DNA of 30,001 nt. Source: a virus. Taxonomy: Duplodnaviria; Caudoviricetes. The stretch is taken from IMG/VR virus record IMGVR_UViG_3300033407_000090, positions 1 to 30,001 of that record, one strand, 5' to 3'. The notes under the pieces are model-generated. The model worked only from the letters and a program-made list of their open reading frames with translations. It had not been told where the DNA came from and made no database searches. The position numbers and the translations under genes are program-made. Shown in pieces: positions 586 to 29,781 of the stretch. Every line of letters begins with the position of its first letter. Within the stretch, counting starts at the first letter, position 1.

Positions 586-2945
586 CGCATCGCGTCGGCG
601 CACACCTCGTCGAGTACGCGCTCGGGACGCCGTGGGCGATCCTGCCCGACACGCTCGGATTCCTCCTGCGCGTGATTCATCGGGACTACAGCGAGGAGGA
701 GGCCGCCGCCGTCGCGGCACGCCTGGGTATCCCCCTCGACAATGCGCGCGCGGTGACGGTGCGCGATGGCGTGGCGACGATCCCGGTGAGCGGCCCGATG
801 TTCCGGTACGCGAACCTGCTGACGGAAATCAGCGGCGCCACGTCGTATGCAGTGCTCGCCACCGACCTCACGGCAGCCCTGGATGACGATGCCGTGAAGG
901 GCATCCTCCTCGCGGTGGATTCGCCCGGCGGTGACGTCAATGGCGTGTCCGATCTCGCGCAACTCATCTGTGCCGCGCGGGAGCGGAAACCCATCGTCGC
1001 GCATATCGGCGGGTTTGGCGCGAGTGCCGCGTTCTGGCTCGCGACCGCCGCGCACCAGGTTGTCGTCTCGGATACCGCGCTCGTGGGCTCCATCGGGGTC
1101 GTGATGAGCGCCGTCCACGATGATCCCGAGACCGCGGAGCGCCATATCGAGTTCGTCTCGAGTCAGACGCCGGACAAGCTCATCGACGCCTCGACGAAGT
1201 CAGGCCGCGCGCGCTACCAGGCGATCGTCGATCAGCTGGCGGGCGTTTTCGTCGCGGCGGTGGCACGACACCGGAAGACCGACGAGGCGACGGTGCTGGC
1301 CGACTACGGGAGGGGCGGGATCCTGATCGGGCAGTCCGCCGTCGCGGCCGGCATGGCCGATCACGTGGCCACCTTCGAGGAGACGCACACGATGCTCGCC
1401 GAGACCGTGGGTGTCCGGTCGAGTACCGCACCGTCGCTGGCCGCGGTCTTGCCGCGGCTCGCCGCCCTGCAGCACGCCGACCGCCAGTGGCTCGCGGCGT
1501 CGTGTGATCTGCGAGGACTCACCGTCCACCTGCCGCCGGCGGTCTCGGCGCGCAGGAACAATCCGATTTTGTCTTTATCACCGGCCCCCCGGGCCACTGC
1601 GGAGACCGTATCCATGCCCACGCCCACGCATCCACCTGTCGCACCTGCCACCGTGACGCCCGCGTCGCCCGATCTGCTGGGCGAGTACAAGGCGTACGTC
1701 GCCGAGGTCTCCACGCTCTGCGATCTGGCGGGGTTCCCCGGGCTCGCGGCGTCGCTGATCCGGGCCGAGACGCCACTCGACGCGATCCGCGAGGATCTCA
1801 CCAAACGCGTGGCCGCACGGGACGCCGCGCGTTTGGTTCCGCCGACTCCCGTGGTGACAGGCGTGACGGACCGTGAGCTCGCCGAGCCGTTCGCCTCGCT
1901 CGGGGAGCAGTGCATGCTCATCCGCGCCGCCGCCGTGACGCCCTCGAGCATCGATCGTCGGCTGCTGCAGACGCACGACCGGATCAAGGCCGCCACCGGC
2001 ATGAGCGGTGTCGTGGATTCGGAGGGCGGATTCTTTCTTGCGCCGACCTTCAGCGATCGCCTGCTCGAGCGGACCTACAGCACGGGCCAGATCCTCCCGC
2101 GCGTCACCCGCACGCCCATCGGCCCCAACAGCAACGCGCTGACGATCAACGGCGTCGACGAGACCAGTCGCGCCACGGGGTCGAGGCAGGGCGGTATTCG
2201 GGGCTACTGGATCAACACCCCGGACGGCGAGGCCATCACGGCGAGCAAGCCGAAATGGACTCAGATCGGCCTCAAGCTGCAGGGTCTCGGCGCCGCGGTC
2301 TACGCGACCGAAGACGAGCTCGAGGACGTCGTGGCACTCAACGCCCGCCTGAACCGCGCCGTCCCGATCGAGCTGAATTTCATGCTCGAGGATGCGCTGT
2401 TCAACGGCACCGGCGCCGGCATGCCGAAAGGGATCCTCCAAGCTGGATGTCTCATCTCGGTCGCCAAAGAGACCGGTCAGCAAGCGAACACCGTGACGGT
2501 GGAAAACATCGTCACCATGTACGCGCGGTCGTGGGGGGCGGGCAGGACCGGCGCGGTGTGGCACATCAATCAGGACATCGAGCCGCAATTGTTCACCATG
2601 GGCATCACCTTCGGCACGGGCGGGCAGGCGATCTACATGCCGCCCGGCGGCCTGAGCGCGGCGCCCTTCGCGACGCTCCTCGGGCTGCCCGTCATCCCCG
2701 TGGAGTACTGTGAGACTCTCGGGACCGTGGGGGACATCGTGCTCGCCCAATGGGGCGCGTACGAAATGATCACGAAAGGCGGCGTCAAAGCGGCCGAATC
2801 GATTTCGGTGAAGTTTCTCGAGAACGAACGCACGTTCCGCTTTACGCTGCGGACCGACGGACAGCCCTCATGGCGGGTCGCACTGACGCCGTTCAAGGGC
2901 ACCGTCACGCAATCGCCGTACGTCGCGTTGGCGACGCGCGCCTAA
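579..2945 (+). CDS. S49 (SppA/lambda gpC-like) prohead protease fused to HK97-fold major capsid protein
   Basis: N-terminal S49 motifs LLAVDSPGG, ASAAFWLA, VGSIGV; C-terminal capsid motifs EGGFFLAP, LFNGTGAGMPKGIL, TLLGLPVI, FRFTLRTDGQP; RBS GGGAGGAG upstream. Confidence 0.9.
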   Translation: MVTHRVGAHLVEYALGTPWAILPDTLGFLLRVIHRDYSEEEAAAVAARLGIPLDNARAVTVRDGVATIPVSGPMFRYANLLTEISGATSYAVLATDLTAALDDDAVKGILLAVDSPGGDVNGVSDLAQLICAARERKPIVAHIGGFGASAAFWLATAAHQVVVSDTALVGSIGVVMSAVHDDPETAERHIEFVSSQTPDKLIDASTKSGRARYQAIVDQLAGVFVAAVARHRKTDEATVLADYGRGGILIGQSAVAAGMADHVATFEETHTMLAETVGVRSSTAPSLAAVLPRLAALQHADRQWLAASCDLRGLTVHLPPAVSARRNNPILSLSPAPRATAETVSMPTPTHPPVAPATVTPASPDLLGEYKAYVAEVSTLCDLAGFPGLAASLIRAETPLDAIREDLTKRVAARDAARLVPPTPVVTGVTDRELAEPFASLGEQCMLIRAAAVTPSSIDRRLLQTHDRIKAATGMSGVVDSEGGFFLAPTFSDRLLERTYSTGQILPRVTRTPIGPNSNALTINGVDETSRATGSRQGGIRGYWINTPDGEAITASKPKWTQIGLKLQGLGAAVYATEDELEDVVALNARLNRAVPIELNFMLEDALFNGTGAGMPKGILQAGCLISVAKETGQQANTVTVENIVTMYARSWGAGRTGAVWHINQDIEPQLFTMGITFGTGGQAIYMPPGGLSAAPFATLLGLPVIPVEYCETLGTVGDIVLAQWGAYEMITKGGVKAAESISVKFLENERTFRFTLRTDGQPSWRVALTPFKGTVTQSPYVALATRA
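1601..1616 (+). promoter_or_regulatory. Putative internal RBS and in-frame ATG (1614) giving a 443-aa capsid protein
   Basis: GGAG-N9-ATG in frame, preceded by an AT-rich patch (about 1555-1580) and a small hairpin GGCCC-CCC-GGGCC. Confidence 0.5.
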
Positions 2946-6908: not shown

Positions 6909-8661
6909 ACAGGTTTCGATCATCATCCGGGCACGCGATCTCGCGAGCAGCGTGCTCGGCAAGATCCGCAACAATTTCGGATCGATCATCATCGTCGCCA
7001 ACCAAGCGGCGGCGCTGTTCGGCAAACTCGTGCGCGTCGCGGGTCAGGTGTCGTCGGGTTTTGCCGATCTCCTCCGGCGCGGCAGGGATCTGACCGTCGT
7101 GCAGAGCGCGTTCAACCGTGCCGCCGGGACAGGTACGTCCGCCCTGCGTGCCCTCCGCGAGTCCACCCAGGGGCTCGTGAGAGATTACGATTTGATGGTG
7201 GGGTTCAATCGCGCGGTGACGCTGGGCGCGGTGCAGACGACGCAGGAGTTCGGCGATCTCACACAGACGGCGATTGCGCTGGGGAGGGCGATGGGACTGG
7301 ATGCGTCGGTCGCGATCGATAAAATGACGTTGGGATTGGCGCGGCTCAGTCCCAAACTCCTCGACGATGTGGGCCTCACCGTCTCGGCGGGCGAGGCCAA
7401 CGTGCGATACGCGGCGGCGCTCGGCGTGGCGGTCAGCGCGCTGACCGACGCCCAGCGACGCGAGGCGTTTCGCGCCGCCGCGATCGATGCGAGCCGGGTC
7501 GCGCTCGCCAAGCTCGGGAAGACGGCGCTGGGCGCGGGCGACACGATGCAGACGCTCCGGGTCCAGGTCGAAAATGCCGTGGACTCGATCGGCAAAAAAA
7601 TCAACGAGAGTGATTTTTTTGCGGGGATCCTCAGTCGTGCGACGAGTTTCGTGGAGGACCTGGCGGACATCTTCATGGCGGATAGCGGGACGATTCGCGA
7701 GGTGTTCGACGCGCTCGGGACCCTGGCCGGTCATGCCTTCATGGCCGCGCTCATCGCCCCGCTGCCCTTTGTCTCTGCCGAGACCGAGATCGCGGGGATG
7801 GAGGCGTCTGTCAAACGGATCCAATCGCTAGCCAGCGGGGCCAGGGCCGAGCGTCGCGCGGACGAAATCCGGCAGACGCCCGCGTTTCTCGAGGCGCGAC
7901 TGGGCGTCCTGCGAGCCCAGCGTGCTGCGCTGATGGCTCGGCCGGTGACGTCGCCGGAGGGGGAGGGGAATCCGTTGCTGCGTCTCCGCTCCGAGCGCGA
8001 CCTCATGGCGACCATGCGCGAGGTGGTCGCGGTGACAGACGACATCGTGCGCCTCGACCACGAGATCAGCGAGACGATGACGGCGCTCGTCGAGGCGCGG
8101 AAACGGCTGCGCCAGACGAGCGCCGTCACCGTGCGACGCCCGACGGCCGCGGAGGCCGCGGCGTTCGCCGCGTCCGCCCGCGAGCGGGACGTGGTAGACA
8201 TTCCGACGCCCCTCCCCCTGCGCCCCTTTGTCCCTCGCGAGGTCGAGCAGTCGGTTCAGGTGTTCGAGGAGGCCGGGGCCGCGATCTCCGATATGGCCCT
8301 CACGGTCGGCCGTGAGTTTGCCTTCATGGCGGCGTCGGTGCTGCGCGGCACCGACGACGTAGTGCAGTCTGTGCTCAACATGATCTCGCGGATCGCCGGT
8401 CAGAGTGGTGGGACAGTCGGCTCGATCGTGAGCATCCTCGCCGATGTCGCCAGCCTGGTGGTCGGTCGGGGTGACCCTGCGCCGACGCACGTCCGCATCG
8501 ACTCCTATGCGGATCGTGCGCTCGACCAGATGCGGCAGGCCCAAGGCGAGGTGACCATCTCCCTCCAGGGTTTTAGCCCGGACGACACCGCGGCCGTCGA
8601 GCGGCTCGCCGCTCGACTCGACGCGCTCCGCGGGCGCCGCATCAACCTCCGGCTCACATGA
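6898..8661 (+). CDS. Tail tape measure protein (587 aa)
   Basis: Begins EQVSIIIRARDLAS; Ala-rich helical; GLARLSPKLLDDVGL motif; canonical position. Confidence 0.88.
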   Translation: MATEQVSIIIRARDLASSVLGKIRNNFGSIIIVANQAAALFGKLVRVAGQVSSGFADLLRRGRDLTVVQSAFNRAAGTGTSALRALRESTQGLVRDYDLMVGFNRAVTLGAVQTTQEFGDLTQTAIALGRAMGLDASVAIDKMTLGLARLSPKLLDDVGLTVSAGEANVRYAAALGVAVSALTDAQRREAFRAAAIDASRVALAKLGKTALGAGDTMQTLRVQVENAVDSIGKKINESDFFAGILSRATSFVEDLADIFMADSGTIREVFDALGTLAGHAFMAALIAPLPFVSAETEIAGMEASVKRIQSLASGARAERRADEIRQTPAFLEARLGVLRAQRAALMARPVTSPEGEGNPLLRLRSERDLMATMREVVAVTDDIVRLDHEISETMTALVEARKRLRQTSAVTVRRPTAAEAAAFAASARERDVVDIPTPLPLRPFVPREVEQSVQVFEEAGAAISDMALTVGREFAFMAASVLRGTDDVVQSVLNMISRIAGQSGGTVGSIVSILADVASLVVGRGDPAPTHVRIDSYADRALDQMRQAQGEVTISLQGFSPDDTAAVERLAARLDALRGRRINLRLT

Positions 8662-16870: not shown

Positions 16871-18294
16871 GCTATCCAGTGTACTATGTCGAGGCAGGCG
16901 ACACGCTGCCGATTTTATTCGCGTCCTACGACGGGGGAACCGGCGCCAGCGTGACGATGACCGGGCTCGCCGTGACGGATGTCGAGGTCTACAAAGACGG
17001 ATCGGTGACCCAGCGCGCGAGTGATGCAGGCTATGTGCTGCTCGATACCGACGGGATTGATTTCGACGGGCTGACAGGGATCCATGGGATCAGTCTCGAT
17101 CTGAGCGATGACACCGATGCGGGATTCTACGCCGTCGGGTCGTGGTACCACGTCGTCGTCTCGTCCATCACGGTCGATGCCCAGACGGTGAGTTTTGTTG
17201 CCGCGGCATTCCGCGTTGTGTCGGCGACGCGCGGGCTCGCCGGGACGGCCCTCCCCGATGCGGCTGCTGATGCAGCGGGTGGCCTCGCCATCTCTGACGC
17301 GGGCGGCGTGGATCTCGACGCGCAGCGCAGCGACGTGGCGGCGATCCTCGTGGACACGGGGACGACACTGCAGGCGGAGCTCGACGGCATCCAAGCCGAC
17401 ACCGAGGACCTGCAGACTCGTGTGCCGGCGGCTCTGGTGTCTGGACGTATCGATGCGAGCGTGGGGGCGATGGCGGCCGATGTGATGACGGCCGCCGCAG
17501 CTGCGGCGGACCTGACGACCGAACTACAGTCCGGCCTCGCCACCGCGGCCGCGCTCACCACGGTCGAGGGCAAGATCGATACCCTCGACGCAAACGTCGA
17601 CACGCTGCTGACGCGGATCACGGGTGCGCTGTTCGGCGGCATCACAAGCCTCGCCGAATGGCTCGGGCTGCTCGGCGGCAAACAAACAGCCGACGCCACT
17701 GCGCGCACGGAGATGCGCGCGACCGGCGCCGGATCGGGGACGTATGACGAGACCACGGACTCGCACGAGGCACTCCGCGACACGCAGGGGACGCCAGCGG
17801 GTGCCTCGGTGAGCGCCGATGTCGCTGCGATCCAGACCGTCGTCGACGCCGTGCTCGTGGACACGGGGACGACGCTCCCCGACCAGATCGACACCCTGGA
17901 CGCCGTGGCCGATGCGATCCTCCTGGATACGGGGACCGACGGCGTGGTCGTCGCCGCGGCGAGTAAGGCCGGCTATGCCCTGTCAGCGGCGGGAGTGGAT
18001 GCGCTCTGGGATGAGGCGCGCAGCGGCCACGCGACTGCGGGCACCTTCGGCGAATCCTTTGCCGGGATCGTGGCGGGGGTGGCGGAAGTGGGGACGCTCT
18101 CGATCACGCAGATGACGAGTGACCTGGCTGAGGCCACCGATGACCACTACATCGGTCGGACGATCGTCTGGGTGACGGGTGTCCTGGCAGGGCAGGCATC
18201 GGACGTCACCGATTATGCTGGTACGACGGGGCTCCTGACCTACACCGCGATCACGGAGGCACCCGGGGTCGGTGACCGGTTCGTGATCGTCTAG
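16867..18294 (+). CDS. Putative virion structural protein (475 aa) with internal (I/V)L(V/L)DTGT repeats
   Basis: ATGA overlap; Ala/Thr/Asp-rich; repeats ILVDTGTTL, VLVDTGTTL, ILLDTGTD. Confidence 0.6.
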   Translation: MSYPVYYVEAGDTLPILFASYDGGTGASVTMTGLAVTDVEVYKDGSVTQRASDAGYVLLDTDGIDFDGLTGIHGISLDLSDDTDAGFYAVGSWYHVVVSSITVDAQTVSFVAAAFRVVSATRGLAGTALPDAAADAAGGLAISDAGGVDLDAQRSDVAAILVDTGTTLQAELDGIQADTEDLQTRVPAALVSGRIDASVGAMAADVMTAAAAAADLTTELQSGLATAAALTTVEGKIDTLDANVDTLLTRITGALFGGITSLAEWLGLLGGKQTADATARTEMRATGAGSGTYDETTDSHEALRDTQGTPAGASVSADVAAIQTVVDAVLVDTGTTLPDQIDTLDAVADAILLDTGTDGVVVAAASKAGYALSAAGVDALWDEARSGHATAGTFGESFAGIVAGVAEVGTLSITQMTSDLAEATDDHYIGRTIVWVTGVLAGQASDVTDYAGTTGLLTYTAITEAPGVGDRFVIV

Positions 18295-18491
18295 TGCGTA
18301 CCGCACTCGGACTCTGCGGCACGAGCCGCGGCGGGCCGTTTGGTTCGCACGCCGGCAAGATCGAGTCGGTGGCGGTGCGCTACGAGCTCGCCCGCCGTGG
18401 TGGACTGCGCTACGGCGTGACGACGCGGGTGGGCGCGCGGTACGCGATCACCGGTCGTCCGGGACCACGATACGAGGTGACTGACACATGA
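18294..18491 (+). CDS. Small hypothetical protein (65 aa)
   Basis: GTG overlapping the upstream TAG; stop overlaps the next ATG; repeated RY motifs. Confidence 0.5.
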   Translation: MRTALGLCGTSRGGPFGSHAGKIESVAVRYELARRGGLRYGVTTRVGARYAITGRPGPRYEVTDT

Positions 18492-18835
18492 GCCTACCTG
18501 AGATCGCGCTCGACAATGATTTCGAGCCCGAGTACGACGTGACGCGCAAGGCCAGCGCGACGGGGCTCGCGGAAGCGGCCACCGGGCTGACGGGGCTGAC
18601 GGCACACATCGCCGCGACGGACGAGGGCGCGACGATCGACGCCTCGCTGAGCGTCAGCGCGAGTGAGCGCAGCGCCACGGCGGGGCGATACTACGCAGTC
18701 ATTCCCGGCGCAGATCTCCGCACGCATCTGGCCGGCTACATCGGTCGCAAGGTCTGGGTGATCTTCGGCGACGACGCGACGCTGGACGTATCGGACCCGC
18801 ACCTGGTGATCGCCGGCCGCCGGAGCGCGTCGTGA
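18488..18835 (+). CDS. Hypothetical protein (115 aa), possibly Ig-like structural
   Basis: RBS GAGGT; ATGA coupling. Confidence 0.55.
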   Translation: MSLPEIALDNDFEPEYDVTRKASATGLAEAATGLTGLTAHIAATDEGATIDASLSVSASERSATAGRYYAVIPGADLRTHLAGYIGRKVWVIFGDDATLDVSDPHLVIAGRRSAS

Positions 18836-19332
18836 GCCTCGACGACCTCCGCCTGGTCCGGCTCTCGACCCATTTCACCGCGATGGAGATGATCCGCAGC
18901 GCAACGGGCGAGGCGCTCGGCATGCAGAATGTCCCCGGTGCGCAGCAACTCGTGCACCTGGCGCGCCTGAGCGCGCAACTCGAAATCGTGCGGCAGGACG
19001 TGTTCGAGGGCCGACCTCTCCGCATCACCTCCGGGTACCGGTCGCCCGCGCTCAACGCGGCGGTCGGCGGCGCCGCGAACTCCTGGCACATAGACGGCTG
19101 CGCGGCGGACTTCCAGCCCCCACCCGGCATGTCCCACGACGAGTGCCAGCACCGCATCGCGGGCGCGGGACGCATCCTGTTCGATCTCCTCCTGGAGGAG
19201 TGGACCGCTGATGGTCTCCACCGCTGGATACACTTCCAGGTCCCGCAGATTGGCGAACCTCTCCGACGGCTCGTGCGAGATGCGTCCATCGCCCGGCTCG
19301 GTGCGCCCGTCACCAGGACGGTGCCGGGATGA
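18832..19332 (+). CDS. Endolysin, peptidase M15A family
   Basis: LSTHFTAMEM, ITSGYRSPALNAAVGGAANSWH…AADF, WIH Zn-binding motifs. Confidence 0.9.
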   Translation: MSLDDLRLVRLSTHFTAMEMIRSATGEALGMQNVPGAQQLVHLARLSAQLEIVRQDVFEGRPLRITSGYRSPALNAAVGGAANSWHIDGCAADFQPPPGMSHDECQHRIAGAGRILFDLLLEEWTADGLHRWIHFQVPQIGEPLRRLVRDASIARLGAPVTRTVPG

Positions 19333-19925
19333 TCCGATTTCTCGTCGGCGCCTGCCTCGTCGCCGCCCTGCTCTGGGGCGTGCTCGGTCAGGTCCGTGCT
19401 GGTCGGGCGCTGGCGCGCGCGGACATGACGCGCGACAGCCTGACGCTCGTGCGGACGGCGCTGGACGCTGACCACGCGCGGCGGGTCGTTCATGATCGTG
19501 AGGATGCCGAGCGGGCGCGCGCGTATCGCGACACGGTGGTCTCAGTCCGTGCTCGCCTCGATGCGCTGGATCGTGAGGTCGCGCAGCGGGTCGCGCACCT
19601 CGACACGGTGCTCGCGGAGGACACGACGATCACGCCAGGGGTTCGGGATGCCGCTCTTGCGGCGGTGTCCGTCCTCACCGCCGCCGGCGAGGCCTGTCGG
19701 GTCGGGTGGATGGCATGCGACTCCGTGTCTGCCCTCGCGGCGCGGCGCCTGACGCGAGCCGACTCGACGGTGGCCGAGCAGGCGGCGGTGATTCACGCGC
19801 TCGATGTGCTGGTGTCCGACTACCGGCGCCTCGCGTCGCCGCCGTGGTACGAGCAGGTCCGGCGCGCGCTGCCGTGGGTGGCACTGTCGGCGACGCTCGG
19901 GCTGACGCTCGGGCTGGCGATCTGA
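19329..19925 (+). CDS. Spanin-like (Rz-like) protein
   Basis: Directly after endolysin; N-terminal TM, long Ala-rich coiled coil, second hydrophobic segment at the C-terminus. Confidence 0.55.
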   Translation: MIRFLVGACLVAALLWGVLGQVRAGRALARADMTRDSLTLVRTALDADHARRVVHDREDAERARAYRDTVVSVRARLDALDREVAQRVAHLDTVLAEDTTITPGVRDAALAAVSVLTAAGEACRVGWMACDSVSALAARRLTRADSTVAEQAAVIHALDVLVSDYRRLASPPWYEQVRRALPWVALSATLGLTLGLAI

Positions 19926-19936
19926 TCTGGCAGGCT

Positions 19937-20001
19937 CCTGCGTCCTACGGATTCCCCGCCCCCGGTGTCATCCGAGCGCAGGGCGGATACTACTCTGCCT
20001 C
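19937..20001 (-). repeat. Cassette element R1: distal half (hairpin arm plus core)
   Basis: 64/65 nt identical to 21083-21147. Confidence 0.95.
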
Positions 20002-20609
20002 TGGCCGTCGCGATAGAGCTCCCGGACGACGACACCGCTGGGGTAGCGGTGAACTCGCGACCCGTGGAGCTGGCCGTCGCGATAGCGCTCCCGGACGACG
20101 CCCCCAGGGTAGCGGTGCACTCGCGACCCGTGGAGCTGGCCGTCGCGATAGCGCTCCCGGACGACGCCCCCGTCGGCGAGCTGTGTGACCCGGAGCCCCG
20201 TCGTGCGTCGCGCCCGCACGACGACATCCGCATCCGGATAGCGGGCGCGGATCGCGTCTGCGATGCTCGGCGCCGTGGTGATGATCTGGTCGATGATCTG
20301 GCGCTCGACCCGCGCGCCCGTCTCGCCGACCACGGCGCGGCCGTAGCCGCGCACCAAGCACACGGCCTCATCCCGCCGGTAGGGGACGAGCCGATCCAGG
20401 TGGTCGGGTCGCCAAATACCGTGTAGCCCGCACCGCCCGAGGACGGCCGCGTCATCCGACCAGCTGTCCGCTGTGAGGGCGAGACGGGGCCAGGGAGTCC
20501 CCATCGACGGGGATGTCAGTAGCCCGTCGTGGCCGACACAGCAGACGCGCGACAGGAGCAGCCCGCCGTCCCCACTCAGCCGGTCGGGCCGGACGGTGCG
20601 GAGTGTCAT
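19968..20609 (-). CDS. Cassette 3 ORF E: uncharacterised N-terminal domain plus MORN-variant repeats (213 aa)
   Basis: ATGA-coupled to ORF D; repeats GVVRERYRDGQLHGSRVHRYP resemble MORN-variant/YwqK repeats; stop lies inside R1. Confidence 0.7.
   Translation of the reverse strand: MTLRTVRPDRLSGDGGLLLSRVCCVGHDGLLTSPSMGTPWPRLALTADSWSDDAAVLGRCGLHGIWRPDHLDRLVPYRRDEAVCLVRGYGRAVVGETGARVERQIIDQIITTAPSIADAIRARYPDADVVVRARRTTGLRVTQLADGGVVRERYRDGQLHGSRVHRYPGGVVRERYRDGQLHGSRVHRYPSGVVVRELYRDGQRQSSIRPALG
20001..20171. repeat. Tandem coding repeat, about 2.5 units of 69/66 bp (MORN-like)
   Basis: Units start at 20001, 20070 and 20136 with CTGGCCGTCGCGATAG(A/C)GCTCCCGGACGACG. Confidence 0.9.
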
Positions 20610-20731
20610 GCGGGCACCGCCGCGGGCACGGTGGCCGGCACGGTGGCCGGTGTGGCCGGTACGGGCTCGCGTTCAGCGGGGTGGCGCTCCGGCACCACCT
20701 CGCCGACCTCGATGATCTCGCCTATCCGCAT
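20606..20731 (-). CDS. Cassette 3 ORF D: 41-aa Pro-rich peptide (below ORF-track cutoff)
   Basis: MRIGEIIEVGEVVPERHPAEREPVPATPATVPATVPAAVPA*; overlaps the ORF C stop; its TGA overlaps the ORF E ATG. Confidence 0.65.
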   Translation of the reverse strand: MRIGEIIEVGEVVPERHPAEREPVPATPATVPATVPAAVPA

Positions 20732-21036
20732 GGCTCGGAGGCGCGGAAACGCCACCCCCCCAACCGTGACGTCTCCATCGCGTCGAGGACGATCGGCGCC
20801 ACGTCAGCGACCCGACAAACTGAGTACTCGTCGATCCCCTCGATCCCCTCGAGTGTGACCTCGGTGACTCTGTGGCACCACGCCGCCAGGCGCAGTGGTA
20901 CGACTCCGAGGACGTGGCGTCCTCGCACGTCATTCGGAGTCGCATGGGGGACGATCGGGGTGTCATCTGCGATGACACCCCGCGCTCGGAGGTACGCCAC
21001 GAGCGCGGGGTGTCTGGTGACTACGAGGTCGATCAT
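20722..21036 (-). CDS. Cassette 3 ORF C: Csx16 (Cas_VVA1548)-like protein, candidate ring nuclease/anti-CRISPR
   Basis: VVTRHPALVAYL…HATPNDVRGRHVLGVVPLRLAA matches the Csx16 pattern (T/S)RH…H…V(I/L)G.(L/V)P..LAA; GAGGGAGG RBS from the repeat. Confidence 0.62.
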   Translation of the reverse strand: MIDLVVTRHPALVAYLRARGVIADDTPIVPHATPNDVRGRHVLGVVPLRLAAWCHRVTEVTLEGIEGIDEYSVCRVADVAPIVLDAMETSRLGGWRFRASEPCG

Positions 21037-21147
21037 ACGGTCCCTCCCTCTGGTGCCCCTGAGTCAGCCCCGAGGCGCGGGCCCTGCGTCCTACGGATTC
21101 CCCGCGCCCGGTGTCATCCGAGCGCAGGGCGGATACTACTCTGCCTC
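21033..21147 (-). repeat. Cassette element R2: full element (hairpin arm, core, 5'UTR/RBS arm)
   Basis: 21033-21089 identical (57/57) to 21778-21834; 21083-21147 matches R1 at 64/65. Confidence 0.95.
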
Positions 21148-21423
21148 CGTCAGCCGGGCGACCTCGGCTGGGGAGTAGCCCCAGCCCAGGAGATACGCCC
21201 GGGCCTCGGCCAGGGCGAGCTCCTGGGCTGGTTCGACGGGGTGGTCACGCCACACCCCGTCGCCATCCCGGCGGTCGTACGATCCTCTACTACCGCCGTT
21301 GGCGTGTCGGTAGTAGTACTCCGCGCCGACGCGCACTATCGATTCTGTGCTCCACTCCGACGCTAGCTCTGCTAGCGTCTCGCCCGTCTCGCAGGCGCCG
21401 TCCAGATCCACGTCGTACTCCAT
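21136..21423 (-). CDS. Cassette 2 ORF B: acidic hypothetical protein (95 aa)
   Basis: RBS GAGGGAGG from R3; fills the space between R3 and R2 exactly. Confidence 0.75.
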   Translation of the reverse strand: MEYDVDLDGACETGETLAELASEWSTESIVRVGAEYYYRHANGGSRGSYDRRDGDGVWRDHPVEPAQELALAEARAYLLGWGYSPAEVARLTEAE

Positions 21424-21429
21424 GGTGGT

Positions 21430-21522
21430 CCTCCCTCTGGTGCCCCTGAGTCAGCCCCGAGGCGCGGGCCCTGCCGGTCCTTCGATTCCCTGCGCCCGGT
21501 GTCACCCGAGCGCAGGGCGGAT
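21430..21522 (-). repeat. Cassette element R3: full, slightly diverged element
   Basis: 45 nt (21430-21474) identical to 21043-21087 and 21788-21832; hairpin arm conserved with a few substitutions and indels. Confidence 0.93.
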
Positions 21523-21529
21523 GGTGGTG

Positions 21530-21781
21530 CTACTCCTCCGTCTGGGCGACCTGACGGCGGACGACAGCGTACTCCTCCGCCGTGTAGATGACCCGGCCGG
21601 CGGGGGAGACGATCGCTACCCCCTCGGGCCCATGGAGGCTGTAGTCCTCCGCGAGGACCAGCGCCTCGCGGAGGCTCCGCGCCGTAGCGCAGGGTTCGGC
21701 GCTGAGATGGAGGCCGTCCATCTCGACGCTCGCGGCGTGGAGCCGCCAGCGACGCGCGGATCGGTGTGGGTGATTGGTCAT
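21530..21781 (-). CDS. Cassette 1 ORF A: hypothetical protein (83 aa)
   Basis: RBS GAGGGAGG from R4; fills the space between R4 and R3. Confidence 0.75.
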   Translation of the reverse strand: MTNHPHRSARRWRLHAASVEMDGLHLSAEPCATARSLREALVLAEDYSLHGPEGVAIVSPAGRVIYTAEEYAVVRRQVAQTEE

Positions 21782-21834
21782 ACGGTCCCTCCCTCTGGTG
21801 CCCCTGAGTCAGCCCCGAGGCGCGGGCCCTGCGT
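21778..21834 (-). repeat. Cassette element R4: proximal half (core plus 5'UTR/RBS arm)
   Basis: 57/57 identical to 21033-21089; abuts a TAGATT (-10-like) hexamer at 21835-21840. Confidence 0.95.
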
Positions 21835-21919
21835 AATCTATCCTCGATACGTTGCACTATCCGTGCCGGCAGGAAAATCGTAGGGATCATGCGGTAGTTC
21901 GGATAATCTTCGGGGCGGT

Positions 21920-21956
21920 AGGGTCGTGCAAACTGCGAAGGATCGTGCACACTGCG
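21920..21956. repeat. Tandem 18-bp direct repeat (possible operator) upstream of the cassette array
   Basis: AGGGTCGTGCAAACTGCG (21920-21937) and AGGATCGTGCACACTGCG (21939-21956), 16/18. Confidence 0.6.
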
Positions 21957-21964
21957 GTACCGGC

Positions 21965-22165
21965 TTAGTCGTCGATCGTGGGCCCATCTGACGTCGGAAG
22001 GATCTCCCATCGGGCCGACCAGCGCCACCCGCGGCCCCGGAGGATCTGCCAGATGCGGCTCGGCGAGAGTCCCGTCTCGCGGCTCAGCTCGCGCAGCGAC
22101 AGCGACGGGCGGTCCCGCACGATGCGCACGAGGCGGTCCGGGTCCATGAGACGAGGGGGTGCCAT
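21965..22165 (-). CDS. Small HTH DNA-binding protein (repressor/regulator)
   Basis: PSLSLRELSRETGLSPSRIWQILR is a classic HTH; divergent from the early operon. Confidence 0.8.
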   Translation of the reverse strand: MAPPRLMDPDRLVRIVRDRPSLSLRELSRETGLSPSRIWQILRGRGWRWSARWEILPTSDGPTIDD

Positions 22166-22170
22166 GCCAT

Positions 22171-22199
22171 ACGGTACGGTGTGCGGCCCGCCCGCGCAA
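22171..22199 (-). promoter_or_regulatory. Putative leftward sigma70-type promoter TTGCGC-N17-TACCGT
   Basis: The -10 ends 5 nt before the HTH ATG (possibly leaderless); mirrors the rightward promoter. Confidence 0.5.
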
Positions 22200-22238
22200 G
22201 TGACAGGTTTTGCAGGCGGACTGCAAGAACATGCACAC

Positions 22239-22268
22239 TTGCGCCGGCGCCGGCGTCACCCGTATACT
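22239..22268 (+). promoter_or_regulatory. Putative rightward sigma70-type promoter TTGCGC-N18-TATACT
   Basis: Near-consensus hexamers upstream of the AGGAG RBS and GTG at 22298. Confidence 0.65.
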
Positions 22269-22297
22269 GCCGCAGACATCCACCCAGGAGAGGGACG

Positions 22298-22466
22298 GTG
22301 GCGAGACACTCGACGGACCTGCGGCCGGTGGTCAGTACCCGGGTGAGTCCCGAGGACCTGCGGGAGATCGACGCCGTGGCCGACCGCATGCAGGCCGGCC
22401 GCGCGGAGGTTGCTGTATCGGGCGATCATGCAGTACGTGCGGCGTGTCCTGCAGGATCCGGCCTGA
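22298..22466 (+). pseudogene. Ribbon-helix-helix (CopG/Arc-like) protein with an apparent 1-bp insertion at 22410-22411
   Basis: VVSTRVSPEDLREIDAVADRMQAGRAEV continues in the +1 frame as LYRAIMQYVRRVLQDPA*, ending in a TGATG overlap with the next gene. Confidence 0.65.
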
Positions 22467-22561
22467 TGCGTACCCTCGGGGACATCCTCCTGGTGTGGGT
22501 GGTGGTGGACACCCTGATCCTGGTCTGGTGGGCGCACCGATTCGCGCGGCCGCGCCGATGA
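22466..22561 (+). CDS. 31-aa single-TM peptide
   Basis: MRTLGDILLVWVVVDTLILVWWAHRFARPRR*; TGATG and ATGA overlaps. Confidence 0.5.
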   Translation: MRTLGDILLVWVVVDTLILVWWAHRFARPRR

Positions 22562-22983
22562 CACGACCTGAGGCCGGCGCCGTCAGGATCGCGGAGCGGC
22601 TATGGCGCCGGGGCCTGACGGCGCCGGCGATCGCGCGACGGCTCGAGGTCCACGTCGGGACCGTCTATGAGTGGCGCCAGAGGCACGCATGGCCGCGGCA
22701 CGCGCTGTCTTCGAAGCCGACCCAGGGCCAGATGGCCGCGGCCCTCGCGCTCTGGGTGGAGGGCCGGCCGGTGCTCGACATCGCCTCCATCACTCGCCTG
22801 GCGCATGCGACCATCTACCGATGGAGCCGGGTCTACGACTGGCCGCCGCACCCGCGGAAGCGCCCGAAGAGATCCGACGCCCACCGGTCAGACTACCGCG
22901 CGTGCTGGCGGCGCTGTCAGGCGTGTGAGCAGCTGACCCCGGGGCTCGCGCCGTGCCAGGCGTGCGGCGAGGCGAGGACATGA
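22558..22983 (+). CDS. Tandem HTH protein with C-terminal zinc ribbon
   Basis: Two HTH units (APAIARRLEVHVGTVYEW; LDIASITRLAHATIYRW), then CQAC…CQAC. Confidence 0.7.
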   Translation: MTRPEAGAVRIAERLWRRGLTAPAIARRLEVHVGTVYEWRQRHAWPRHALSSKPTQGQMAAALALWVEGRPVLDIASITRLAHATIYRWSRVYDWPPHPRKRPKRSDAHRSDYRACWRRCQACEQLTPGLAPCQACGEART

Positions 22984-23004
22984 CACCCCCTATGGGAGGA
23001 CCCC

Positions 23005-23349
23005 ATGACATCGACCGGTATCTCGACTCGTGCGGCGGTCCGTGCCGCACTCCGCAGCGTGCAGGACGCGGAGCGGGCAGCCCCGCCCTGCGTGCACTGT
23101 GGCCGACCGATCATCACGGCCCGGCTCGCCCTCGATCCCGTCGTGCAGACGGGCCGGCGCTACGTCACGACGCGCATCGAGACGTCGGCGGATCTCGGCG
23201 CGTGCGACTGCGCCGAGCGTGCGGGCTGGGATGAGACGCGGGAGCACTGGCAGCGACCGGCCGGCGATACGGGACCGTGCCCGCAGTGCCGGAGCACGAC
23301 GTGCCCGGGCTGGTACGCGCCCGACGCCGACCACGACCTGGCCTTCTGA
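23005..23349 (+). CDS. Cys-rich hypothetical protein
   Basis: GGGAGGA RBS; CVHC, CDC and CPQC motifs. Confidence 0.6.
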   Translation: MTSTGISTRAAVRAALRSVQDAERAAPPCVHCGRPIITARLALDPVVQTGRRYVTTRIETSADLGACDCAERAGWDETREHWQRPAGDTGPCPQCRSTTCPGWYAPDADHDLAF

Positions 23350-24116
23350 TGACACACACATCCGAAGACGCACCTGCGCCCGAGGATGCCACGGCACTCG
23401 CCGTGCACCGTACGACCGACGACCCGATCGCGGGCATGCTCCGGCTCGCGATCGAAAAGGACATGAGCGTCGAGGGCATCGAGAAGCTGGTGGCGCTCCA
23501 CGAGAGGATGGCGGATCGGCTGGCGGAGCAGCAGCTCGGGGCCGCGCTCTCGCAGTTCCAGGGCGCGTGTCCCCCCATTGCCAAAACCAGCGTCGCCAAC
23601 ATCCTCTCAAAAAAAACGGGTGCGCGCTACAGCTATACCTACGCCGAGCTCGACGAGATCGCGCGCACCGCCGGCCCGTGGCTCCACCGGCTGGGACTCT
23701 CGTATGGGTGGGATACTGTGATGACGGACCGCGAGCTCCGGTGCACGTGCACACTCCGGCACGCTGCCGGGGGGAGGGCGACGGCGACGTTCGCGTGCCC
23801 CGTCGTCGAGTCCGACTCGATGAGCGCGCCGCAGCGCGTGGCAGCCGCCCTCACATACGCGCGCCGGCAGTCCCTCATTCAGGTCCTCGGGCTCACCACC
23901 GCCGAGCCCGACGCCGACGGGACGACGCACGAGCCGATCAGTGAGGACCAGGTGGCGCAGCTCGAGGGCTTGCTCGCGGGCGTCACTATGAGCAAGGCGC
24001 GGCTCCTCCGGCTCCTGGGCGTGGAGCGGGTCGGGGACATCCCCGCGCCACTCTACGACGTCGCCGTCAATGCGATCGAGGCCAAGCGTCGCGCGCAGCA
24101 GGGCTCGGCACCATGA
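23349..24116 (+). CDS. ERF-family single-strand annealing protein
   Basis: IEKLVALHER, YTYAELDEI, CTLRH, AALTYARR…DADG motifs; adjacent to exonuclease. Confidence 0.85.
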   Translation: MTHTSEDAPAPEDATALAVHRTTDDPIAGMLRLAIEKDMSVEGIEKLVALHERMADRLAEQQLGAALSQFQGACPPIAKTSVANILSKKTGARYSYTYAELDEIARTAGPWLHRLGLSYGWDTVMTDRELRCTCTLRHAAGGRATATFACPVVESDSMSAPQRVAAALTYARRQSLIQVLGLTTAEPDADGTTHEPISEDQVAQLEGLLAGVTMSKARLLRLLGVERVGDIPAPLYDVAVNAIEAKRRAQQGSAP

Positions 24117-24802
24117 TCGTCGTCGACTGCGAGCAGGGCTCGCCCGAGTGGGTGGCGGCGCGGCTCGGCGTGCCGACGGCCTCGGCATTCCACCGGCTCA
24201 TCACGCCGAAGACGGCGAAAGAGAGTGCCGCGTCCGAGGGCTACCTCGCCGAGCTCGTGGCGGAGTGGCTCCTCGGTGAGCCGCTCGACCCCGATGTCTC
24301 GGGGTTCATGACGCGCGGGACGGAGCTCGAGCAGACAGCCATCCGCTTCTACGAGCTCCAGCGCGACGTCGATGTGGCGCGTGTGGGCTTCGTGCTCGCC
24401 GACGATTCCGGGTACGGGTGTTCGCCCGACGGGCTCGTGGGCGAGGACGGCGGCCTGGAGCTCAAGTGTCCGGGCCCCGCCGCGCACGTCCGCCACCTGC
24501 TCGCGCTCGAATACGAGGCGCAGCCGACCGAGTACTACGCGCAGGTGCAAGGGTCGATGTACGTGACCGGTCGCGCGTGGTGGGATTTTTTATCGTACCA
24601 CCCGACGCTGCCGCCGGCCCTCGTCCGATACGCGCGCGACGATGTGTTTTGCGGCAGCCTCGCGGGCATATTGGGCGACTTCTGCGCGCGGCTCGCCGAG
24701 GCAAAAGAAAAGATGATCGCGCGCGGCTATCACCCTCCGGATGGCGCCGTGTCCGGCTGGCTGCGTGCGGCGCTGGAGCGCTCCGTGCAGGCACAGACGT
24801 GA
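24113..24802 (+). CDS. YqaJ / lambda exonuclease family protein
   Basis: QGSPEW…RLG..TAS, MTRGTELE, GCSPDGLV…LELKCP, YYAQVQG.M…WWDF. Confidence 0.93.
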   Translation: MIVVDCEQGSPEWVAARLGVPTASAFHRLITPKTAKESAASEGYLAELVAEWLLGEPLDPDVSGFMTRGTELEQTAIRFYELQRDVDVARVGFVLADDSGYGCSPDGLVGEDGGLELKCPGPAAHVRHLLALEYEAQPTEYYAQVQGSMYVTGRAWWDFLSYHPTLPPALVRYARDDVFCGSLAGILGDFCARLAEAKEKMIARGYHPPDGAVSGWLRAALERSVQAQT

Positions 24803-25401
24803 GCCATCCCCTCGTGTACCTCGACCTCGAATCCACCGGCCTCGACATCGAGACCGCGCGCATCGTCGAGATCGCCCTGCTGCGCGACGATGGCGACACG
24901 CTCGTGAGCGTCGTCCATCCTGGGCGCCCTATCCCGCCGGAGGCGACGGCGGTCCACGGCGTCGCGGACGGCGACGTGGAGATGGCACCCCGCTTCGCCG
25001 AGATCGCCGCGACCGTCCAGGTGTTCCTCGACGGCGCCGTCCTCGTCGGCTACGGCTCGCGGCGGTTTGACGTGCCCCTCCTGGACGCGGAGTTGCGGCG
25101 CGCGGGCCAGCTGGGCATCGACCTCGATACGTCGCGCGAGATCGATCTCTACGAGGTCTGGCGGGCACTGGAGCCGCGCACGCTGGTGGGCGCGATGACC
25201 CACTATCTCGGTATCGTGCTCGCGGGCGCACACGGCGCACTGGCGGACGCCGACGCCGTGCGGGACCTCATGCCGGCCATGATGGCACAGCACGCGGCGA
25301 CCGTCGAGCAGCTGATGGCGCTGAGCCGACCAGCGACGGCGACACGACGCGGGCGCTGCGATCGCTGGGTGCGCACGAGGAGGGCAACCAATGACGAATG
25401 A
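24799..25401 (+). CDS. DnaQ-like DEDDh 3'-5' exonuclease
   Basis: LDLESTGLD, RIVEIA, A.AVHG, RFDVPLL, HGALADA. Confidence 0.9.
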   Translation: MSHPLVYLDLESTGLDIETARIVEIALLRDDGDTLVSVVHPGRPIPPEATAVHGVADGDVEMAPRFAEIAATVQVFLDGAVLVGYGSRRFDVPLLDAELRRAGQLGIDLDTSREIDLYEVWRALEPRTLVGAMTHYLGIVLAGAHGALADADAVRDLMPAMMAQHAATVEQLMALSRPATATRRGRCDRWVRTRRATNDE

Positions 25402-25834
25402 CTCGCGAGCACGAGTGCCGCCCACCATGCGCGGCCTGATCTACGCGGTCGCGGATGTCGCACCCGATGTGCTGGCTGGCGCGATCAGCCGCCCGCACAC
25501 GCCGGAGCGGTGGACGACCATAGAGGGAGACGAACTCCACCATGACTGTCTCCCGTACTGCGGGTGTTTCATCGGATCTCTCGCGATCGCGTGGGCCGAG
25601 CGTGATGGTGATGACTTTGGCTACCCCGGTGGGTATTGGGGTATTTGGTTCGGCGCAGGCGGAGACTCGGCGTTCGACTACGTGCGACAGAAGCTGTACG
25701 CACTCGATTGGGTCTGTGACCCCTGGTGTGCTGGCATAGTGTGCACCACAGACACAGAGGACGCCGCGGCGGTCGAGTATGCGCTCGACGTGCTGGACGC
25801 GAGGGCACACCGGACTCAAGGAGGGCGGGTCTGA
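25391..25834 (+). CDS. Hypothetical protein (147 aa)
   Basis: GGAG RBS; overlaps flanking genes. Confidence 0.6.
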   Translation: MTNDSRARVPPTMRGLIYAVADVAPDVLAGAISRPHTPERWTTIEGDELHHDCLPYCGCFIGSLAIAWAERDGDDFGYPGGYWGIWFGAGGDSAFDYVRQKLYALDWVCDPWCAGIVCTTDTEDAAAVEYALDVLDARAHRTQGGRV

Positions 25835-28884: not shown

Positions 28885-29781
28885 ATGGCTTACAGTAATC
28901 AAATGACAGGATTCACGAAGCTGTTTACGGGCATCGTCTTTTCGACGGTGTGGCAGGAGCCGCTGCACACGAGGGTCGTCTGGGTCACGATGCTGGCGCT
29001 CGCCGACCGGATGGGCCGGGTGCTCGTCTCGCAACCCGGACTCGCCAAAGCGTCCGGCGTGACGATGGAGCAGTGCACCGAGGCACTCGACTGCTTTCTC
29101 GCGCCGGATCCGTGGTCCCGGACGAAGGCGCACGATGGTCGTCGTATCGAGGAGATCGACGGCGGCTGGCTCCTCCTCAACTACATCGCGTACCGCGAGT
29201 TACGCGATTCCGACGAGCGGCGGATCGCGAACCGTGAGCACGTCCGCGAGCACCGCGCGCGCAAGCGGAAAAAGCCGCATGTAAGCGATGTAAGCGATGT
29301 AAGCAATGTAAGGGCTAGTAAGCCGCATGTAAGCGATGTAAGCAATATACGAGTTAGTAAGCCCAATGCAGATGCAGAAGCAGAAGCAGATGCAGAAGCA
29401 GTAACAGCTCTCTCTCACGCACGCGCGCGCGAGCGCGAGGAAACTGAGCCCCCGCCCGAGCTGACCGATCCCCTGCACCGGAGCGCATGGACCGGGCTCT
29501 GTCGGGCTAGTCCGAATCCGTCCGCATGGGTCGCGTCTGTCCGCGCCGTGACAGACGGGCTGCACCCGCCCGTGTACCCGTGGCCCGTCGTCGGCCAAGC
29601 CCTCGCGGACATCGCGGGCAACGGGCAGGGGCCGAACGTGGCTCTGCTGCGCGCCTGCTGTCGCCGACTCGTCGAGCCGCAGCGTCCCACCGCCGCACAA
29701 AGCCTGACACCGAAACAGCAGCTCGAGCAGCTACGCCAGGATATCGCGGCGGAGAAGGCGGCAGGCGCGCGTCATGCTTGA
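28885..29781 (+). CDS. Phage replication initiator (O-like / replisome organiser)
   Basis: FTKLF..I..STVW…WVTMLALAD, PDPWSR…GRRI…GGWLLLNY..YR N-terminal domain; internal iterons; EAEADAEA linker. Confidence 0.8.
   Translation: MAYSNQMTGFTKLFTGIVFSTVWQEPLHTRVVWVTMLALADRMGRVLVSQPGLAKASGVTMEQCTEALDCFLAPDPWSRTKAHDGRRIEEIDGGWLLLNYIAYRELRDSDERRIANREHVREHRARKRKKPHVSDVSDVSNVRASKPHVSDVSNIRVSKPNADAEAEADAEAVTALSHARAREREETEPPPELTDPLHRSAWTGLCRASPNPSAWVASVRAVTDGLHPPVYPWPVVGQALADIAGNGQGPNVALLRACCRRLVEPQRPTAAQSLTPKQQLEQLRQDIAAEKAAGARHA
29272..29400. repeat. Iteron-like repeats / probable replication origin inside the initiator gene
   Basis: GTAAG at 29281, 29290, 29299, 29308, 29318, 29329, 29338 and 29357 (9-bp ATGTAAGCR units) in an AT-rich patch, followed by GCAGA(A/T) hexamers. 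Confidence 0.75.

Follow-up and report, generated by a model that had tools for sequence, protein, structure and literature searches.

The leftward gene block of a tailed soil phage, contained in a 30,001-nt linear virus record (IMG/VR record IMGVR_UViG_3300033407_000090, positions 1 to 30,001; hereafter, the window), is punctuated by four full or partial copies of a repeat element, R1 to R4. We conclude that this element is likely a promoterless expression joint, resembling the promoter early stem-loop (PeSL) elements of T4-type phages, and that its copies are shuffled by homology. Each complete joint combines a GC-rich hairpin past a stop codon with a fixed Shine-Dalgarno leader before the next start codon. 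In the scenario that we regard as probable, the operon would have had R4 as its original leader, following the promoter, and R1 as its original terminal hairpin; a single join of the two at a 7-nt microhomology would have given a hybrid internal copy. The 57-65 nt of identity would then let genes drop out, enter and re-pair, each retaining its RBS and a hairpin at its 3' end, while the copies would be exchanged by homologous recombination, probably by the phage's own ERF protein and exonuclease.

All four copies lie on the minus strand, and two of them are complete. In R2 (21033..21147) and R3 (21420..21541), a 12-bp GC-rich hairpin past the stop codon (21100-21129 and 21488-21517, respectively) is followed by a short linker and then by a leader with a Shine-Dalgarno sequence and an ATG at its end; the joint in R2 leads into gene C and that in R3 into gene B. 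R4 (21778..21834), the first copy in the operon, has only the leader arm with the ribosome-binding site (RBS) and is identical to 21033-21089 of R2 at 57/57 positions. R1 (19937..20001), found at the leftward operon end and facing the stop codon (19925) of the last lysis-side gene, has only the hairpin arm, with its inner hairpin at 19954-19983, and matches 21083-21147 of R2 at 64 of 65 positions. Neither match can be extended by one base, and both top the window's repeat list, being far beyond chance. R3 and R2 have a 45-nt core in common (45/45), and the leader core recurs at 21068-21081, 21455-21468 and 21813-21826, all on the minus strand. The RBS-arm and hairpin-arm halves share the overlap CCTGCGT (21083-21089), of which R3 retains CCTGC alone. 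Since the last 12 nt of R1 are the final three codons and the stop of B, the R1/R2 identity runs past the element into coding sequence.

The identities of the half copies and the overlap had been given in a preliminary description of the window and were reproduced in every number on recomputation. The same holds for its three co-oriented cassettes (open reading frames A, B, C, D and E, all on the minus strand), and the anatomy of the joints bears out its statement that every unit comes with an RBS and a 3' hairpin of its own. It had also placed the overlap inside a dyad at each junction; a dyad is present, if imperfect, but the overlap is the right arm of this dyad and not a spacer between its arms.

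Exchange between copies is visible in natural strains. The best-matching public runs, X1-X3, are soil metagenomes from three studies, X1 being possibly the source run, and no RNA run is listed among the matches. Our strain comparison took in X1-X4; a further run, X5, yielded no contigs. The copy after B in X2 is a mosaic, R2-like over 21083-21116 and continuing with R3's loop base (21117) and R3's tail. The RBS spacer of A, which is of the R2 type in the window, is R3-like in X2, X4 and a minor X1 contig. Coding ends are affected as well: the C-terminus of A is replaced from 21577 onward in X2 and P0024, and three of the six members of the E cluster natively end in DGHRVE. In the other three, including that of the window, E carries the final three codons and the stop of B in another frame and reads into the hairpin, which in the window is the R1 hairpin loop. 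Exchange points in strains X2-X4 are thus spread over the element and into the coding ends. Gene content and the pairing of genes with joints vary among related soil strains, in line with the preliminary description, and the homologous shuffling that it had offered as its own alternative fits best.

Whole-gene loss at the elements is suggested from cover and depth alone, depth being a rough guide: X3 has no contig over A except a 34-nt chance piece and shows a depth of 3.3 for B versus 9.4 for C, and in X2 B and C are near 6 versus 12-13 for A and D-E. All of the mosaics actually resolved are small conversions. Such conversions would also be expected of a purely regulatory repeat, the same leader and 3' hairpin being selected at each gene (for example, for RNA processing into single-gene messages or for translational control), with mosaics as incidental gene conversion and no drive of gene gain or loss. 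The leader core, which elsewhere occurs as a single copy before unrelated genes (see below), agrees with this explanation, and the accessible text of PMC3203893 offers a precedent in the start-associated sequences (SAS) of cluster K mycobacteriophages. The cover of A in X3 and the depths of X2 and X3, rough as they are, argue against it, as does a leader-led 1-kb unit that is 99.6% identical between locus L063 and loci L089/L090 at different genome positions. On balance, we find a purely regulatory repeat rather doubtful.

It is also important to consider how far the array depends on assembly. The gene order does rest on it, because no listed contig spans the whole array. A mixed population collapsed through short repeats would be in keeping with the probable source run, which is uneven in depth (A 7.1, B 5.2, C 12.4) and has alternative junction contigs. 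However, contigs from both X1 (17000-19990 and 21805-23319) and X2 (17000-20052 and 21577-25812) bridge the two array ends, single contigs cover complete junctions in X1, X2 and X3, and variants of A, B, C and E share a 37,979-nt contig as their longest. An artefact of this kind is, therefore, highly improbable.

The preliminary description had read the half-sites as an attL-attP-attP-attR geometry left by a site-specific recombinase, and this part of it is not supported. A simple tyrosine-recombinase site has a 6-8-bp overlap between inverted binding arms. The 11-nt flanks of the overlap match each other at 1 (R1), 4 (R2) and 5 (R4) positions, and at 4 in the predicted empty site, so that no inverted arms surround the overlap; the best shifted core reaches 6-7 of 11 matches, which equals the window background mode of 6-7. 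Boxes of attC sites (R' GTTRRRY, taken from the accessible part of PMC9892861, and the complementary R'' RYYYAAC) were found at 0/4 junctions on either strand. Crossovers are not confined to the overlap: one copy is a mosaic, and both RBS spacers and coding tails have been swapped. R3 also breaks the overlap itself. The predicted empty-site joint of R1 to R4 is listed in none of the four runs, where contigs show presence only and cannot prove absence. As the preliminary description had noted for recombinases in the window, profiles PF00589 (tyrosine) and PF00239 (serine) have no match in the 30-kb contig, which is about 45% of the genome. Moreover, unrelated expression-repeat arrays of phages often include half copies, and the half-site layout is thus not diagnostic of a recombinase.

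An integron-like capture may still be imagined, in which an unseen recombinase, encoded by the host or by the missing half of the genome, uses the 7-nt overlap to insert circles and later homologous exchange has blurred the copies. The hairpin arm could then be a non-canonical attC-like fold with the crossover in its 3' stem. Several observations would suit such a process: the end copies R1 and R4 are exact complementary halves; as single-stranded DNA, R1 and R2 form a long imperfect bulged hairpin closed by the overlap (z -1.8 and -1.9), stabler on the minus strand; at each of the four junctions, 36-37 nt separate CCTGC from its complement (a post-hoc observation); a joint in X3, described below, falls one base past the overlap; and more than half of the genome is unseen. 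Yet besides the missing inverted arms and attC boxes, the empty-site joint that no run lists and the lack of a recombinase in the contig, R3 folds differently (and R4 no better than shuffles), leaders and tails are not kept with their genes in strains, other carriers of the leader do not have the overlap, and neither arm accompanies the unit that is skipped in X3. Integron cassettes are variable past the junction, unlike the window element with its conserved 50-nt leader there. According to the accessible text of PMC9892861, integron arrays and phage clusters of attC sites lacking integron integrases (CALINs) have co-oriented small genes with imperfect palindromes between them, the first site partial and the last followed by flank, much as in the window, whereas the window array has no GTTRRRY or RYYYAAC box and no integrase in the 30-kb contig. 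Overall, we judge integron-like capture unlikely. A bolder form of it, in which the recombinase cuts the 7-nt stem end of an attC-like hairpin and stacks counter-defence genes, among them a Csx16 homolog, behind one promoter, each with a possibly pseudoknotted leader, seems to us quite improbable. If true, the site-specific reading would make the array a new phage integron analogue.

Returning to the expression joint, its likeness to PeSLs is considerable. As far as the accessible parts of PMC2839356 and PMC4122927 describe them, PeSL cassettes of T4-type phages recombine to produce chimeras and mini-circles. There too, a conserved intergenic element of about 100 bp, running from stop codon to Shine-Dalgarno sequence and start and including a stem-loop, lies among small variable genes, with chimeric copies and with gene gain and loss by recombination between copies. 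The window element likewise has a stem-loop, Shine-Dalgarno sequence and start codon at its 3' end and sits among small genes in a variable region. However, its internal copies have neither a sigma-70 promoter nor the AT-rich block, and the window phage, which is small, GC-rich and tailed, has its three or four copies within a single operon versus some 50 PeSLs per genome in the same partly accessible sources. Because no sigma-70 promoter accompanies each copy, we do not file the element as a PeSL. SAS and extended SAS (ESAS) of cluster K mycobacteriophages share with it an oriented conserved Shine-Dalgarno motif before non-structural starts, with an inverted repeat upstream; their sequence is unrelated, consisting of 13 bp plus 17-bp repeats scattered genome-wide, and the text accessible to us does not present them as cassette joints (PMC3203893). 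No published description of the element was found in the literature searched (main texts, subscription papers being outside the scope). A search of Rfam returned no family at the element or at the leader; a hammerhead or other ribozyme, a repetitive extragenic palindromic (REP) element, a CRISPR array and an intrinsic U-tract terminator were all rejected from the sequence by comparison with their consensus, with no Rfam match.

Transcription of the block would start upstream of R4. A standard promoter scan of 19800-22400 gave 0 sigma-70 sites, and a looser custom motif scan placed promoter-like sites only upstream of R4. One possible promoter, TTGCAC-17-GATTAT, lies at 21903..21931 on the minus strand. 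Beyond a helix-turn-helix (HTH) gene (21965..22165, minus strand), there is a leftward promoter-like site, TTGCGC-17-TACCGT (22171..22199, minus strand), and its divergent rightward partner, TTGCGC-18-TATACT (22239..22268, plus strand). Between the members of this divergent pair (22170-22270), we observed an inverted repeat TTGCAG-N5-CTGCAA, possibly an operator, and similar short motifs occur at 21925-21960. In X3, a single 76-nt contig of depth 3.3, free of differences on either side of the joint, connects 21835 with 22175 and skips 339 nt (21836-22174), the HTH gene included. By hand reading, this joint puts TTGCGC-17-TATACT four bases ahead of the overlap, the -10 (TATACT) abutting the R4 arm and the whole matching the phage's rightward site. 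In the X3 allele, the predicted transcription start would thus lie inside the overlap, which would explain where the R4 arm begins.

We are aware of several points that weigh against the expression joint shuffled by homology. The strain evidence consists of short contigs with depths of 2-13, and neither a clean single-cassette deletion nor a circle was seen among contigs that break at repeats and could not show one. The internal copies, unlike PeSLs, have no promoter-like site even in the looser scan. No U-tract was found downstream of the element hairpins, and RNA fold z-scores are modest (-1.2 to -1.4 for R1-R3), so any RNA role of the hairpin is putative. The X3 breakpoint, one base from the overlap, is also expected under the site-specific model and comes from that one 76-nt contig. 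Homology leaves unexplained the route by which unrelated genes first gained the hairpin arm, and the remainder of a genome of which the contig covers about 45% could hold a recombinase. Finally, the bare 13-mer of the leader core is common in GC-rich DNA, 6/8 places in genomes G008 and G009 being chance.

In its longer form, the leader is found beyond the window phage, in another phage family and in three bacterial genomes. The RBS-arm core CCCGCGCCTCGGGG with a Shine-Dalgarno sequence precedes other genes in the viral locus L063 (twice, at 7693 and 9572), in L089 (6001) and L090 (2983), and in L091 (382, minus strand), L092 (7039, minus strand) and L093 (7001), all of which lack the overlap and the hairpin arm. 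The element core therefore does occur round different cargo, as the preliminary description had anticipated, though with the RBS arm only. L063 was also the single viral locus retrieved with the B alignment (1/47 candidate stretches), and its block likewise sits between lysis-like and exonuclease genes. It holds two 152-bp repeats, in each of which TTGCAT-16-TATACT is followed by a hairpin, by the 14-nt core known from the window and by a Shine-Dalgarno sequence and ATG; one precedes a homolog of B that is full-length, and the second leads into a different gene. A promoter-led unit of about 1 kb with a DUF5710 gene is 99.6% identical between L063 (9413-10420), L089 (5843-6849) and L090 (2825-3831), which carry it at different genome positions, and in L089 and L090 it comes after a terminase gene. 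One gene that neighbours this unit precedes it in L063 and follows it in L090.

Loci L091-L093 are likely, not certain, relatives of the leader, judging from their sequence: all three share GAGGCAGGAG at positions left free by the search pattern, and for this reason they are likely real. Near the leader motif, L091 also shows sRNA-Xcc1 above the Rfam cut-off (765-850, minus strand), with two tRNA genes adjoining. The three loci are the bacterial-genome matches of a stricter leader pattern, 3/3 of which stand directly before open reading frames: in a Burkholderiales metagenome-assembled genome (MAG), in a Mesorhizobium MAG (ahead of an HTH gene that adjoins a Gp49-like gene) and in Methylobacterium aquaticum; by a rough estimate, 1-4 chance matches to this pattern are possible. 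The leader, CCC-GC-GCCTC-GGG-N-GAGGC-AGGAG-ATG, could fold into a small H-type pseudoknot immediately upstream of the ribosome site, its stems having been imposed by the search patterns.

Further searches used parts of the element. Exact RBS-arm patterns had 0 matches in viral contigs and in bacterial genome contigs, and the leader string was not found in the literature searched. The hairpin-arm 20-mer hit 8 loci in metagenome contigs: 2 came from the contig of the window itself, and the other 6 were chance matches in which the remainder of the element is missing; a loose hairpin pattern found 21 loci in viral contigs, none with the rest of the element. Chance likewise accounted for 2 of the 6 loci (L086, L087) found with the leader pattern in viral contigs. 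Of the 40 loci returned by a relaxed leader pattern, 35 belong to a single unrelated phage family in which a plain hairpin precedes the RBS, 1 was a chance match and 4 were already known.

Arrays of similar design were found through gene C. An alignment of C and 15 homologs retrieved 54 viral Csx16 loci (L009-L062), many of them in repeat-led small-gene arrays. According to the accessible part of 10.1101/2024.09.24.614671, Csx16 is a ring nuclease that degrades cyclic tetra-adenylate (cA4); when 28,114 genomes of cultured phages were surveyed, two were found to carry it. In the 53 testable loci (L060 lies too near an end), the 120 nt upstream of the Csx16 match recur within the locus in 10/53 cases versus 6/134 control starts, and upstream repeats with at least two further copies occur at 7/53 loci versus 3/134 control starts. 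This enrichment is only indicative, because the loci are not de-duplicated, L014/L015 represent a gene duplication, and the controls are dominated by one phage family. The repeats at these other arrays are unrelated to the window element in sequence and alike in design. In L027 (444-8095), about 16 copies of a terminator-plus-RBS element of about 190 nt stand before small genes; 4/16 have the RBS part only and 3/16 are without it. In L019, 2/11 copies consist of the upstream half only and 1/11 of the downstream half only. L019 (4400-12255) belongs to a complete 261-kb phage and contains two Csx16 domains as well as Macro, NADAR, DprA-like and DUF1848 genes, most of them behind one repeat of about 100 nt. 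Profiles PF00589 and PF00239 found no match in 5/5 such array records, including that of L063, one of the five (261 kb, with L019) being complete.

As for the cargo of the window itself, C (104 aa, 20722..21036; all cargo genes being on the minus strand) is a Csx16 homolog that matches Pfam Cas_VVA1548 (E 2e-08) over profile positions 2-57 of 91, whereas homologs P0003 and P0004 cover 2-89/90. C thus does not contain a full-length domain. In the alignment, about 17 internal residues that are conserved in its homologs, within the second half of the family, are deleted, a difference that also separates C from the Csx16 cA4 ring nucleases of the same Pfam family in the accessible part of 10.1101/2024.09.24.614671. 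Csx16 activity of C is doubtful because these residues are absent. The structure model of C has a pLDDT of 77.6 and is weak beyond residue 60; a fold search with it gave no PDB match at E<=0.001. By analogy with AcrIII-1, the phage location of C suggests an anti-type III CRISPR use, and from C alone we infer a possible counter-defence role for the accessory block. In the relative P0017, C has 146 aa with a 42-residue C-terminal duplication.

The remaining cargo is less telling. A (83 aa, 21530..21781) has no named family, and its Atlas matches are all under 0.9. B (95 aa, 21136..21423) has an N-terminus shortened in comparison with its 160-177-aa homologs. D (41 aa, 20606..20731) overlaps the stop of C and the start of E and has no family at E<=0.1. 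E (213 aa, 19968..20609) consists of an unnamed N-terminal domain and 22-aa (66-nt) tandem repeats; no homolog was found outside its own cluster, its Atlas matches being unnamed clusters. The number of 66-nt repeats (20001-20172) varies by strain, X2 skipping one, and the proteins range from 184 to 250 aa.

The leftward block as a whole (19968-22165) lies between rightward portal, capsid, tail and endolysin genes, which end at 19925, and rightward early genes for ERF, a YqaJ exonuclease, a DEDDh exonuclease, DUF5131, a RuvC-like protein, Dam and a replication protein. The ERF single-strand annealing protein and YqaJ exonuclease (23277..24802, plus strand), situated 1.5-3 kb from the array, are the candidate homologous-recombination machinery. 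Viral contigs queried with ERF yielded no relative. Inside the replication gene (29279-29365), short 9-nt tandem repeats are possibly origin iterons.

Overall, our results add a promoterless version of the PeSL-type expression joint, found in a small, GC-rich phage from soil whose natural strains show the copies being mixed, and they indicate that a half-site layout alone is no sign of a recombinase. The leader motif, which has no Rfam match and is common to phages and mobile DNA of Proteobacteria, is a side lead that may matter more than the array. The Csx16 cargo may likewise outweigh the array itself: its homologs in 54 viral loci, often inside such arrays, point to a common and likely under-counted anti-type III CRISPR cargo.

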